Position numbers and translations under genes: made by a program
From: a plasmid
Assembly (NCBI RefSeq): GCF_053078305.1
Contig: NZ_CP166875.1
Reading direction: 5' to 3' (one strand)
DNA: 64,000 bases
Notes under the pieces: generated by a model
What the model saw: only the letters and a program-made list of their open reading frames with translations
Told to the model about the DNA's origin: nothing
Database searches by the model: none
In this document: piece after piece, positions 10,575 to 13,555 of the stretch
Numbering within the stretch: the first letter of the stretch is position 1
How the letters are laid out: each line of letters opens with the position of its first letter

Positions 10575-10796
10575 ATGAACTATGCCGGACACGAAAAACT
10601 GCGCGCCGAAGTGGCGGAGGTGGCCAATGCCATGTGCGACCTGCGTACAACCATGAATGAGATGGAGCAGCGGTACAGCTTTAATGCCGACACCCTGCCG
10701 GAACGTCTGGTGCGTCAGACGCTGTTTCGCGCAAACCGCCTCCTGATGGAGGCATATACCGAAATTCTGGAACTGGATTCCTGCTTCAAAGATTGA
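10575..10796 (+). CDS. Hypothetical protein, 73 aa
   Basis: ORF with start overlapping the methyltransferase stop (TAAATG). Confidence 0.5.
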   Translation: MNYAGHEKLRAEVAEVANAMCDLRTTMNEMEQRYSFNADTLPERLVRQTLFRANRLLMEAYTEILELDSCFKD

Positions 10797-10807
10797 GGGG
10801 AGAGAGT

Positions 10808-11242
10808 ATGTACGGAACATGCGAAACGCTATGCCGGGCGCTGGCAGCAAAGTATCCGGGAGACACTCCGCTGATGCTGGTTATCTGGTCCCCGGAAGAA
10901 ATTCAGGCCCTCGCTGACGGAATGGATATTTCCCTGTCCGATCATGAAATCAGGACTGTCCTGGCCCGCCTGGAGGACATCCCGGAAGACCAGCGGACTG
11001 AATCCGGTATTTCTTCCGGTGCGGCGATGGAGATTATCAAATACGTGAGCGAAAACCGCCAGGTGACCGTCCCTGCTGAACTGCTGGCGTCCCTGATTCA
11101 GACCGCCGAACAGGCACTGTGGAAACGTGAATGGGCCGCCCGGGATCATGGCCTCGCCGTCCCGGAATGCGTCACCCGCCGTCAGGCAGTGATTAATCAG
11201 GCCCGCACCCTGCTGAAAAACAACACACACGAAAACGACTGA
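10808..11242 (+). CDS. Hypothetical leading-region protein (about 144 aa)
   Basis: ORF 10793..11242; ATG 10808 preceded by GGGGAGAG. Confidence 0.6.
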
Positions 11243-11286
11243 TGTTATCGCCGCTTTCGGGCGGCGATTCAGGGAGACCATTAATC

Positions 11287-12057
11287 ATGAACAAAACGCT
11301 GAATGCACTGGTTTATCGCCACGCCCGTAACCTGCTGCTGGCGCAGGGCTGGCCGGAAGAGACGGATATTGAACAACTGAATCCGCACTATCCGGGCTGG
11401 ATCAGCATTTACGTGCGGCTGGATGCGCCCCGGCTGGCGACGTTACTTATCAACCGTCACGGCGGCGTACTGCCGCCGCTCCTGGCCTCTGCCATTCAGA
11501 AACTGACCGGAACCGTGGCGGAACTTGTTCTGTCCGGCAGTCAGTGGCAGTCGCTGCCGGTACTTCCGGCAGACGGAACGCAGGTGTCTTTCCCGTATGC
11601 CGGTGAATGGCTGACGGAGGAAGAAATCAGGGCGGTTCTTGATGCGGTGCGCGATGCAGTATGCAGTGTCAGTTGCCGGGTGGCAGAAGATGCGCGGCGT
11701 ATCCGTGCGGCGCTGACCACCACCGGTCAGACGTTGCTGACCCGCCAGACGCGCCGCTTTCGTCTGGTTGTGAAGGAAAGCGATTACCCCTGCTGGCTTG
11801 ATGAAGATGACGAAAATCTGCCCGTGGTGCTCGATGCCATCCTGAACCGGGGAGCACGTTTTTCGGCGGTGGAAATGTATCTGGTCAGCGATTGTATTGA
11901 GCATATCCTGTCCAGTGGGCTGGCCTGCGATGTGCTGCGTATACCGGATGAACCGCCCCGCCGGTGGTTTGACCGTGGTGTTCTGCGGGAAGTTGTCCGG
12001 GAAGCCCGGGCCGAAATCCGCAGCATGGCGGATGCCCTGGCAAAAATCCGGAAATGA
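11287..12057 (+). CDS. Hypothetical leading-region protein (about 256 aa)
   Basis: ORF 11242..12057; likely start [12 protein letters not shown] at 11287. Confidence 0.6.
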
Positions 12058-12472
12058 TGACGCTGGCGGGGAAAAATCTCCGCCTTTTCCTGCCGGTCCC
12101 CGGACAGAGCACAAAGGATGTCGCCGCAGGCTCCGCTTTACCCGGCCATGCGGGGCATGGCCTTGTGGGTTTTCAGTTATGTGGCCTCAGCGTCGTGTGC
12201 GGGCTGTGCCGTGCCTCCATCGTAGCCGGGCTTCTGCGGGCGGGTTGCAAGGTAAGGTGAACCGCTGCGGTCACCCGGTCCCTCCTTCCCGTCTGCCGTG
12301 ATTTTCCGGTCGTTCACCCGCTCAGATTTCGCGGTCTCACCCTCCAACTCCCGTCAGCCGTGTGCGTCAGGCTGCGGCTTCCCTTGCGCCCTTGCAACCC
12401 TGCAGGCCCGGCAAAGATGGAGGCACGGCACCGCCCGGTGTCGCGGAATATGTGAACAACGGAGGAAATCCC

Positions 12473-12898
12473 ATGCAGTATGCGAAATCTGTCACTCTGA
12501 ACGTTGAAGAGTGCGACCGCCTTTCTTTTCTGCCTTACCTGTTTGGCAACGATTTTCTGTATGCCGAGGCGTATGTGTACGCGCTGGCGCAAAAAATGAT
12601 GCCGGAATATCAGGGAGGGTTCTGGCATTTCATCCGCCTGCCGGACGGTGGCGGTTACATGATGCCGGATGGCGACCGTTTTCATCTGGTCAACGGTGAA
12701 AACTGGTTTGACCGCACTGTGAGTGCTGATGCCGCAGGTATCATCCTGACTTCCCTTGTGATTAACCGCCAGTTGTGGCTGTACCACGACAGCGGTGATG
12801 CGGGACTGACACACCTGTACCGGATGCGCGATGCGCAGTTGTGGAGCCACATCGAATTTCACCCCGAATGCAACGCGATTTACGCGGCACTGGACTGA
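12473..12898 (+). CDS. klcA: Antirestriction protein, ArdB/KlcA family (141 aa)
   Basis: Translation MQYAKSVTLNVEECDRLSFLPYLFGNDFLYAE...ADAAGIILTSLVINRQLW shares the conserved spacing of ArdB/KlcA proteins (FLP..FG.DFL...GG.W.F..L..GG..M.P...VN.E.W...ADAAGIILT). Confidence 0.8.
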   Translation: MQYAKSVTLNVEECDRLSFLPYLFGNDFLYAEAYVYALAQKMMPEYQGGFWHFIRLPDGGGYMMPDGDRFHLVNGENWFDRTVSADAAGIILTSLVINRQLWLYHDSGDAGLTHLYRMRDAQLWSHIEFHPECNAIYAALD

Positions 12899-12944
12899 TT
12901 AACGGACGGGGCGGCAATGCCGCCCCTGTAAAGGAGACGAGAAC

Positions 12945-13364
12945 ATGTACTGTACTGTTAAAGAAATTATCCGCGAAGTGCTGAATACAGACGTGCCGGA
13001 CAGTGAATGTGTTTTTGCCGTGGTGCTGACCCGCGGGGATGTGCGCCACATAGCCCGGGACTGGAACCTGTCAGACGATGAGCTGGAAACCGTCATGCAG
13101 CGGCTGGACGATGCTTTTGTATATGGCGCATGTGACAGAGTTGTTTCCGATATTGTCAATGAACTGATGGAGGAAAAGCGCGTAAACCGTCTTGTAACAG
13201 TCCCTGCGGTGCTGCTGGAAAAAGTGATGGTGATGGCTGGTAGTGAAATTTATCGCCTCCATGCTGTAGGGAGCGAGAACGGGGGCGACGGTGACGCATT
13301 TGTCAGGGAAGAACGTGAGATTATGCGGGTGATGCGTCAGGCGCTGGACGGGGAGAATGGGTAA
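12945..13364 (+). CDS. Hypothetical leading-region protein, 139 aa
   Basis: ORF with RBS-like GGAGACGAGAAC upstream; acidic protein. Confidence 0.6.
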   Translation: MYCTVKEIIREVLNTDVPDSECVFAVVLTRGDVRHIARDWNLSDDELETVMQRLDDAFVYGACDRVVSDIVNELMEEKRVNRLVTVPAVLLEKVMVMAGSEIYRLHAVGSENGGDGDAFVREEREIMRVMRQALDGENG

Positions 13365-13555
13365 TGAATATCAGCAAGGAAACCCGCGAAATTCTGCGTA
13401 ATTACAGGGCCGTGATTAATGCGCGGCGTCGTGAAATGGGGCAGAAACCGCTCACCACCGCGCAGATTGTTGATGAAATCTGCGATTTTGTGGCGAATCA
13501 GCAGGCGGTTTTCCTCGGTGGTCACTACATCCTTCAGGGCAGCAGGCACAGGTGA
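13364..13555 (+). CDS. Hypothetical protein, 63 aa
   Basis: ORF overlapping the stop of the upstream gene (ATGA). Confidence 0.45.
   Translation: MNISKETREILRNYRAVINARRREMGQKPLTTAQIVDEICDFVANQQAVFLGGHYILQGSRHR

Follow-up and report, generated by a model that had tools for sequence, protein, structure and literature searches.

The locus described here is a group of five small open reading frames (ORFs) around the anti-restriction gene klcA, at positions 10575-13555 of a 64,000-nucleotide (nt) stretch of plasmid DNA (contig NZ_CP166875.1, assembly GCF_053078305.1; the whole stretch is referred to as the window). The window belongs to an IncF-type conjugative plasmid. A sequence-only reading had described five co-oriented ORFs of 73, 144, 256, 139 and 63 amino acids (aa), and all five were found in place on the + strand. 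From 5' to 3', these are a yubE-like gene (10575-10796, 73 aa; isoelectric point [pI] of the product 4.9), a yubF-like gene of the DUF1380 family (10808-11242, 144 aa; pI 4.9, net charge -8), a yubG/ychA-like gene (11287-12057, 256 aa), a yubJ/ycjA-like gene that encodes a divergent DUF1380 paralogue (12945-13364, 139 aa; pI 4.5, net charge -12) and a yubK/yffA-like gene (13364-13555, 63 aa). Four of the five products are acidic (pI 4.5-5.9), the exception being the basic 63-aa protein (pI 10). Two further + strand genes complete the block: an orphan DNA adenine methylase gene, homologous to M.EcoGIX/YubD, at 9891-10574, and the klcA/ardB-type anti-restriction gene at 12473-12898 (141 aa). The R64/pESBL names of the five are yfcA (yubE), yfcB (yubF), yfdA/ychA (yubG), yfeC/ycjA (yubJ) and yffA (yubK).

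A Shine-Dalgarno (SD) site precedes every one of the five starts, including GGAGG before 10575, a strong GAGGGGAGAGAG before 10808, AGGGAG before 11287 and AAGGAG before 12945. Mechanical ORF calling extends the yubF-like frame to TTG 10793 (149 aa, against 144 aa from ATG 10808), and the yubG-like frame can be opened at ATG 11242 (271 aa, against 256 aa from ATG 11287). The profile alignment to the DUF1380 model begins at residue 1 of the 144-aa form, and the 15 codons 5' of 11287 contain nothing but non-synonymous changes and indels. Together with the SD sites, these observations support the shorter starts.

The coding status of the ORFs was evaluated by the ratio of non-synonymous to synonymous differences per site (pN/pS), pooled over comparisons with six plasmids (an E. 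albertii plasmid, classical F, an IncI1 plasmid, pO86A1, an E. cloacae plasmid and an E. coli IncFIA plasmid). The ratio was 0.26 for yubE, 0.28 for yubF, 0.26 for yubG, 0.33 for yubJ and 0.15 for yubK, with 0.08 for klcA and 0.12 for the methylase gene. Control values ranged from 0.97 to 3.7 for six of seven antisense ORFs and for both intergenic ORFs; the seventh antisense ORF gave 0.43, yet it contains eight in-frame stops in homologues, and several other controls also contain stops. Because the five values of 0.15-0.33 contrast with about 1 or more in controls, and given the SD sites and translational coupling, all five ORFs are genuine protein-coding genes under purifying selection. Long antisense ORFs are typical of GC-rich DNA here.

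The five genes lie between parMR and the origin of transfer (oriT) on the + strand. The parR and parM genes occupy 8059-9374 on the - strand, and a lytic transglycosylase (SLT) gene (25356-25958, - strand) and traM (26279-26662) flank the expected oriT, which therefore lies at about 26.0-26.3 kb. Thus, the leading region spans from about 9.4 kb to oriT, the five ORFs are 12-15 kb from oriT, and ssb (17730-18251), psiB (20613-21050) and psiA (21047-21766) are located between them and oriT. Leading-region genes and tra genes share one strand, so the transferred (-) strand serves as template for the leading-region genes. This strand assignment rests on the transfer polarity of F.

The genes form two transcription units, the first of which starts at the methylase gene. 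In operon A, the order is hairpin, methylase, yubE, yubF, yubG and terminator; the methylase stop and the yubE start abut (TAAATG), followed by gaps of 11 nt and 44 nt. Operon B consists of a second hairpin (ssp2), klcA, yubJ and yubK, with a gap of 46 nt between klcA and yubJ and an overlap of yubJ and yubK (TAATG). The tight or overlapping spacing claimed in the sequence-only reading therefore holds within each of the two groups, and a 415-nt intergenic region between yubG and klcA (12058-12472) splits the supposed single run. This region is structured and contains a terminator-like hairpin with a T-run on the + strand (12065-12094, GGCGGGGAAAAATCTCCGCC then TTTTCCTGCC) directly 3' of the yubG stop, which makes yubG the final gene of operon A; yubK is the final gene of operon B. 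Short GC-rich hairpins devoid of T-runs were also seen after the yubF, klcA and yubK stops (11247-11268, 12908-12927 and about 13560-13585; for example, ATCGCCGC-TTTCG-GGCGGCGAT and GGGGCGGC-AATG-CCGCCCC), and may be mRNA-stabilising or processing elements.

A sequence scan of the + strand across 9300-14900 revealed no sigma-70-like promoter, and an Rfam search of 9000-18000 gave no match. Each operon is instead preceded by a long hairpin on the transferred (-) strand. The 516-nt gap between parM and the methylase gene (9375-9890), folded as single-stranded DNA (ssDNA) of the - strand, had a minimum free energy (MFE) of -113.9 kcal/mol (z = -8.4). The hairpin at 9603-9831, 5' of the methylase gene, is a candidate class-3 ssDNA promoter. 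About 330 nt 5' of the methylase gene are 97-99% identical among IncF and IncI1 plasmids, the hairpin region is conserved beyond the synonymous sites of the adjacent genes, and one compensatory pair change was found in F. In RefSeq records, this hairpin is covered by an annotated "hypothetical protein" of roughly 100 aa (window 9550-9890; 2704-3015 in the related plasmid L001; 704-1015 in pO86A1), and a 141-aa ORF (9389-9814) spans the region in the window. Most probably, gene calling here has mistaken a non-coding ssDNA promoter for a coding sequence.

The second hairpin, of about 240 nt (12199-12437, - strand) and 5' of klcA, is the homologue of F ssp2, which acts in F as a class-2 ssDNA promoter and a replication roadblock. 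Folded as ssDNA, 12190-12450 (- strand) had an MFE of -76 kcal/mol (z = -6.5), and the whole yubG-klcA gap had a z of -5.4. Mean identity of this region to its counterparts in F, an IncI1 plasmid and two others was 94%, and the differences from the F yffB-yfgB intergenic region are restricted to both arms, with pairing preserved. A putative -35-like TTGCAA (12392-12397) and a putative, mismatched -10 region (12413-12418) can be read from the sequence. The inner stem (12230-12260 and 12385-12420 in the window; region 6343-6755 in the related plasmid L002) occurs as two alleles, one in the window, the E. cloacae plasmid and pMS7163B, the other in F and the IncI1 plasmid pP819. Substitutions and indels in each of the two arms distinguish the alleles; each folds stably, and the -35-like hexamer is TTGCAA in one and TTGCAT or GTGCAT in the other. 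A covariation count was uninformative, as the alleles differ by arm indels and MAFFT mis-registers them; the alleles were therefore folded separately in its place, and the F allele folded at -80 kcal/mol (z = -7.6).

Homologous hairpins have been studied in pESBL and F. Wen et al. (2025, NAR, PMC12672017) used 5' rapid amplification of cDNA ends in pESBL to map a class 2 ssDNA promoter before klcA and a class 3 ssDNA promoter, with its transcription start site (TSS), before M.EcoGIX, and report both promoters as conserved in F; they also report induction of the klcA and M.EcoGIX operons in transconjugants of both plasmids. The sequence-only reading had named a lack of expression in early transconjugants as evidence against an anti-defence or establishment role, and the outcome for these homologous operons is the opposite. 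In addition, the F element ssp2, which separates yffB from yfgB (the KlcA/ArdB homologue), causes synthesis of the complementary strand to stall, and its deletion reduces transfer to non-isogenic and restriction-modification (RM)-carrying recipients (Fraikin et al., 2026, bioRxiv). In the window, both operons thus combine a conserved, stable hairpin homologous to a mapped one with the lack of a duplex promoter. The hairpins occupy the same two positions as in the ssDNA-promoter operons of pESBL and F (Frpo/ssi in class 1, class 2 before klcA or ardA, class 3 before M.EcoGIX) and have the same T-strand template; activity, TSS and roadblock were measured in pESBL and F, whereas in the window they are predicted from conservation and folding.

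The whole block corresponds to yubD-yubE-yubF-yubG/yubI-yubJ-yubK of F (NC_002483, 54166-57837) and to its R64/pESBL counterparts in order, sizes, spacing and orientation, with intergenic hairpin regions 92-94% identical on average. The differences are allelic only, including the non-F type of the ssp2 inner stem. The block in the window directly adjoins parMR and lacks the DUF1281 gene of many relatives.

The protein products were compared with family libraries. The methylase matched NF010253 (NCBIfam, E = 5.6e-148) and was 95% identical to IncI1 YfbB, while KlcA matched PF03230 (Pfam, E = 8.6e-25) and the KlcA structure 2kmg (E = 1.5e-16) and was 97% identical to the F protein. The yubE-like protein aligned end to end with phrog_4830 (1-73 of 73, E = 6e-34). 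It is 44% identical, also end to end, to a same-position homologue carrying PF27407:YubE, a family found in the same-position 73-aa proteins of two divergent plasmids (L019 and L020); a Pfam search with the window protein itself gave nothing, the copy searched predating PF27407. The yubF-like protein is a full-length member of DUF1380 (PF07128, E = 1.8e-51, model 1-137 of 137). The yubJ-like protein gave a sub-threshold match to the same model (E = 0.066), and hhalign aligned it with the yubF family at a probability of 95.3% (E = 2.2e-8, 28% identity over 109 columns); moreover, its close relatives are named "DUF1380 family protein" by the Prokaryotic Genome Annotation Pipeline. These profile comparisons indicate that the yubF and yubJ proteins are DUF1380 paralogues. 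The yubG-like protein matched phrog_8919 (E = 1.2e-135), with best full-length relatives 84-94% identical, and the yubK-like protein matched no family in any library searched.

No enzymatic domain was detected in any of the five ORFs with Pfam, NCBIfam or PADLOC, which bears out the earlier statement that they have no recognisable catalytic motifs. PADLOC gave no match for any of the five. In NCBIfam, four were without a match, and the 139-aa ORF had just two sub-threshold noise matches (E about 0.005), well short of the curated cut-offs. In Protein Data Bank sequence and profile searches of all proteins, KlcA was the sole match. A link of the five proteins by sequence or fold to the known anti-restriction families ArdA and ArdB/KlcA was not found, and the idea of an ArdA-like YubG was rejected.

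Structure prediction and fold search had been proposed as a check. The AlphaFold2 model of the yubG-like protein was confident (predicted local distance difference test [pLDDT] 90.9, predicted template modelling score 0.83), and its top AFDB50 matches were all YchA, NgrC or yubG, with TM-scores of 0.86-0.99 and lower scores for fragment entries of the same family. The AFDB50 fold search returned no informative structural neighbour outside the family. The YubG family is narrow, with 178 representatives among 1.84 billion clustered proteins, and all named structural neighbours are from Enterobacterales. The DUF1380 model was poor.

The block is widespread. At least 5000 PLSDB plasmids match the 5.1-kb region, mostly at 90-95% identity, and tblastn likewise returned at least 5000 near-identical records. 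The seven-gene block is common to three backbones, classical F, IncI1 and the IncB/O-type pMS7163B, with identical order; the IncI1 plasmids have an unrelated MOBP/MPF_I transfer system and carry the genes as yfbB-yfcA-yfcB-yfdA and yfeB-yfeC-yffA. The number of synonymous substitutions per site (dS) in yubE was 0.06 against the IncI1 copy; of the five IncF-type plasmids, three gave 0.64, classical F 0.80 and the remaining one 0.11. Among the plasmids compared, yubJ is near-identical to the E. albertii plasmid copy only. The mosaic divergence of yubE points to recombination between plasmid groups.

Conservation of gene position extends to divergent plasmids. The methylase-YubE-DUF1380-YubG module is kept at 39-41% YubG identity, and YubG-like genes at 23-41% identity are always directly 5' of klcA or ardA, with a gap of 170-460 nt for those at 23-30%. 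Where YubG is just 23% identical, a DUF1380-like gene lies 3' of klcA (hhalign probability 98.7%), and homologues of the 63-aa protein, 51-60% identical, are encoded last in klcA or ardA operons of such distant plasmids. A gene for DNA polymerase III theta (HOT-like, PF06440) lies 3' of the anti-restriction operon in four divergent plasmids (L007, L016, L017 and L019), and in three (L009, L010 and L016) the YubG-like gene is preceded by one for a conserved 156-aa protein that belongs to no Pfam family. In the phage collection, the block was absent despite the PHROG matches, and the sole match was 245 nt to the methylase gene. A GTDB scan for divergent DUF1380 proteins gave just five near-identical matches. 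Copies of yubF at 90-95% were found in assemblies labelled Oscillibacter, Oscillospiraceae and Collinsella (metagenome-assembled genomes) and Streptomyces morookaense; contamination by contigs of enterobacterial plasmids is the most likely explanation.

Supplementary Table 1 of Samuel et al. (Nature 2024) includes the five families, each marked "uncharacterized", within the 14 largest leading-region-enriched families, as families 6 (YffA), 7 (DUF1380/YubF), 10 (YchA/YubG), 11 (YfcA) and 14 (YcjA/YubJ). By median, these genes stand 15-20 gene positions from oriT, each oriented so that the T-strand is the template, and anti-defence roles are proposed there for many such families. A literature search on DUF1380 and the yub, yff and ych gene names found no functional study. 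Transposon data exist for homologues in pMS7163B (PLoS Genetics 2023, PMC10286972), whose gene numbers were mapped via the Table A coordinates and the RefSeq record. Where measured, identity of the window genes to the pMS7163B homologues is 78% for yubE and otherwise 81-95%. The log2 fold changes after conjugation in transposon-directed insertion-site sequencing (TraDIS) were -4.24 for gene 950 (yubE, 78% identity to the window; a polar effect), -1.67 for 940 (yubF, 95% identity), -0.38 for 930 (an ORF over a yubG remnant), -3.41 for 920 (ardB), -2.35 for 910 (yubJ, 81% identity) and +0.50 for 900 (yubK).

The TraDIS library was made in TOP10, in which hsdRMS is deleted, and mated into J53 (EcoKI+). 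In the same study, 910::Cm and ardB::Cm plasmids transferred normally from MG1655 and at significantly reduced levels from TOP10, and the authors ascribed the ardB result to EcoKI. Therefore, the yubJ homologue shares the donor-dependent, EcoKI-linked transfer defect of ardB. Insertion of the cassette in 950 (950::Cm) abolished transfer, whereas a clean 950 deletion behaved as wild-type; the defect resulted from the cassette promoter, with about 1000-fold overexpression of 940 and 930, and fitness was also lowered. By reverse-transcription quantitative PCR, the yubF homologue was near-silent in established pMS7163B (threshold cycle about 31, vs. about 24 for repA).

From these data, we favor, as reasonably probable, the reading that the five genes are conserved passengers of two ssDNA-promoter-driven leading-region operons and likely encode binding proteins that help establishment. 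Both operons, having no conventional duplex promoter, would be transcribed when the plasmid enters as single-stranded DNA and silenced once the complementary strand is made. The lead genes, encoding the ssDNA-specific orphan methylase and KlcA, would guard the incoming DNA against restriction, and the small, non-enzymatic, mostly acidic proteins may serve as binding proteins that aid establishment of the plasmid. Within this scheme, YubJ most likely assists restriction evasion alongside KlcA and the methylase, as its paralogue YubF probably does too, and the protection given by KlcA is one to which the yubJ-type DUF1380 protein probably adds. Judged from paralogy and linkage, YubF (with YubE) may act likewise beside the methylase, and yubG and yubK would be conserved "bracket" genes of the anti-restriction operon. 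The five share operon, induction timing and (the basic YubK excepted) acidic character with KlcA/ArdB and ArdA, and the yubJ homologue has the ardB transfer phenotype as well.

The strength of this reading differs among its parts. The reality of the genes, their orthology, the operon anatomy and the hairpins are direct observations on the window. Work by others on homologues demonstrated the zygotic induction, the silence once the plasmid is established and the yubJ phenotype linked to EcoKI; non-enzymatic binding and an anti-restriction helper role are inferred. The sequence-only reading had proposed the ORFs as anti-defence or establishment candidates by position. The leading-region position stands, and the argument from it is the published one; a defence-linked phenotype exists for one homologue of the five, that of yubJ. 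An anti-defence helper role of the five is thus plausible and partly supported, as a candidate assignment.

Several observations weigh against the establishment reading. The hairpin is almost equally stable on the + strand, so the choice of strand rests on transfer polarity and not on folding. Induction in transconjugants is given per operon (Wen et al., 2025). The 910 phenotype comes from a cassette replacement, uncomplemented in the relevant donor, and could reflect altered ardB mRNA stability or downstream read-through. The yubE deletion and yubK insertions were without effect in laboratory matings (PMC10286972), and in the transposon sequencing of pESBL by Yamaichi et al. (NAR 2015), Hp9, Hp10 and Hp11/YchA, the yubE, yubF and yubG homologues, scored as non-essential (1.00) both for plasmid maintenance and for transfer to a K-12 recipient. 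Individual genes are also dispensable in nature: yubF has a premature in-frame stop in pO86A1, and yubG is cut to a C-terminal remnant in pMS7163B (16665-16808). Furthermore, the AlphaFold2 model of DUF1380 (pLDDT 53.7, from a shallow alignment) lends no structural support to the idea of a binding protein or DNA mimic.

A bolder extension of the establishment reading, which we regard as speculative, is that DUF1380 constitutes a new family of anti-restriction co-factors, in which YubJ would act with KlcA/ArdB against type I enzymes and YubF (with YubE) with the weak ssDNA methylase, while YubG would be a new-fold inhibitor of another host barrier. If true, a co-factor role of DUF1380 could help explain the difficulty of reconstituting KlcA/ArdB activity in vitro.

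A regulatory function was also considered, in which the genes act as leading-region regulators or timers and YubK or the helical YubE binds DNA, RNA or RNA polymerase, shutting off or tuning the ssDNA-promoter operons or the dosage of methylase and KlcA. YubK is basic (pI 10) and is last in the anti-restriction operon with either KlcA or ArdA. Moreover, overexpression in cis of the yubF homologue and ORF 930 was deleterious and excess methylation by non-specific methylases is described as toxic, both suggesting that tight limits are needed. However, no DNA-binding domain was detected with Pfam or NCBIfam, transfer is as wild-type with yubK insertions or the clean yubE deletion, and conversion of hairpin to duplex already accounts for shut-off, which leaves a regulatory function unlikely.

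A still less probable explanation is that the ORFs are functionless and hitch-hike between the selected methylase, klcA and ssDNA promoters. Several genes have no phenotype in laboratory matings, and the natural pseudogenes of yubF (pO86A1) and yubG (pMS7163B) would fit this view. The purifying selection on all five genes argues against it, as do the homologues in divergent plasmids, which keep their positions and can still be recognised at 23-60% identity, and the rank of all five among the largest leading-region-enriched families.

The DUF1380 proteins have also been named as DNA methyltransferases (MTases) or could be methylase subunits. The UniProt-derived name "adenine-specific methyltransferase" is attached to 585 of 3957 and 1082 of 3145 members and to one NCBI record, Samuel et al. 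(2024) label family 14 "putative MTase", and yubF always accompanies the methylase gene. In contrast, hhalign of DUF1380 with the adjacent methylase gave a probability of 0.2%, no N6_N4_Mtase or S-adenosylmethionine (SAM)-binding match was found in Pfam or NCBIfam, and the proteins are of 139-144 aa and predicted to be mostly helical, albeit by a low-confidence model. Annotation transfer from the neighbouring gene or fused ORF calls would be the simplest source of the name, and fused entries were seen. The label on families 7 and 14 is thus unsupported, and a role as methyltransferase or methylase subunit is highly improbable. As for a toxin-antitoxin (TA) or addiction pair of the acidic 139-aa YubJ and the basic 63-aa YubK that stabilises the plasmid after entry, the two genes are translationally coupled and leading regions are enriched in toxin-antitoxin genes (Samuel et al., 2024), but this candidate was rejected as having hardly any likelihood, given that no TA or defence family matched (NCBIfam, PADLOC), that yubJ-homologue insertions were plentiful in the pre-conjugation library (log2MPM 14.2; PMC10286972), that 910::Cm was viable with wild-type transfer from MG1655, that yubK is found without yubJ, directly after klcA or ardA, and that the genes are silent in the established plasmid.

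A direct repeat of about 630 bp (13731-14364 and 17064-17698; 93-95% identical, spacing 3333 bp) follows the block; its first copy opens the next leading-region unit after yubK. The second copy directly precedes ssb, so both copies resemble Frpo-like class-1 ssDNA promoter regions. Genes for a DUF3560 protein (14876-16237) and for a class I SAM methyltransferase (16284-16847) lie between them, and a microsatellite, (CTGCTA)x6.8 at 17027-17067, sits on the upstream border of the second copy, whose first bases it overlaps. A ParB-like gene occupies 18603-20561. In addition, traJ is interrupted by an IS66-family element (window 27057-30044), with TnpC (27057-28670), TnpB (28701-29051) and TnpA (29048-29473) all on the - strand, and the ORF at 29646-30044 aligns with the TraJ profile at positions 85-215 only. 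A defect in transfer, or reliance on another activator, may follow for this plasmid, and expression of its leading-region genes would then be rare.

As an object, the block is not new: the families are named, the anti-defence idea is published and the expression test on homologues has been done. The gain is a consolidated map, in which the two operons, their hairpin promoters and the yubF/yubJ paralogy are set out and the TraDIS gene numbers are tied to families, and the "methyltransferase" label on DUF1380 is shown to be unfounded. IncF and IncI plasmids spread antibiotic resistance in Enterobacteriaceae, and the five families are among their commonest genes. If the products of these families do help plasmids pass restriction or other host barriers, they would shape which strains receive resistance plasmids and would be targets for blocking transfer.

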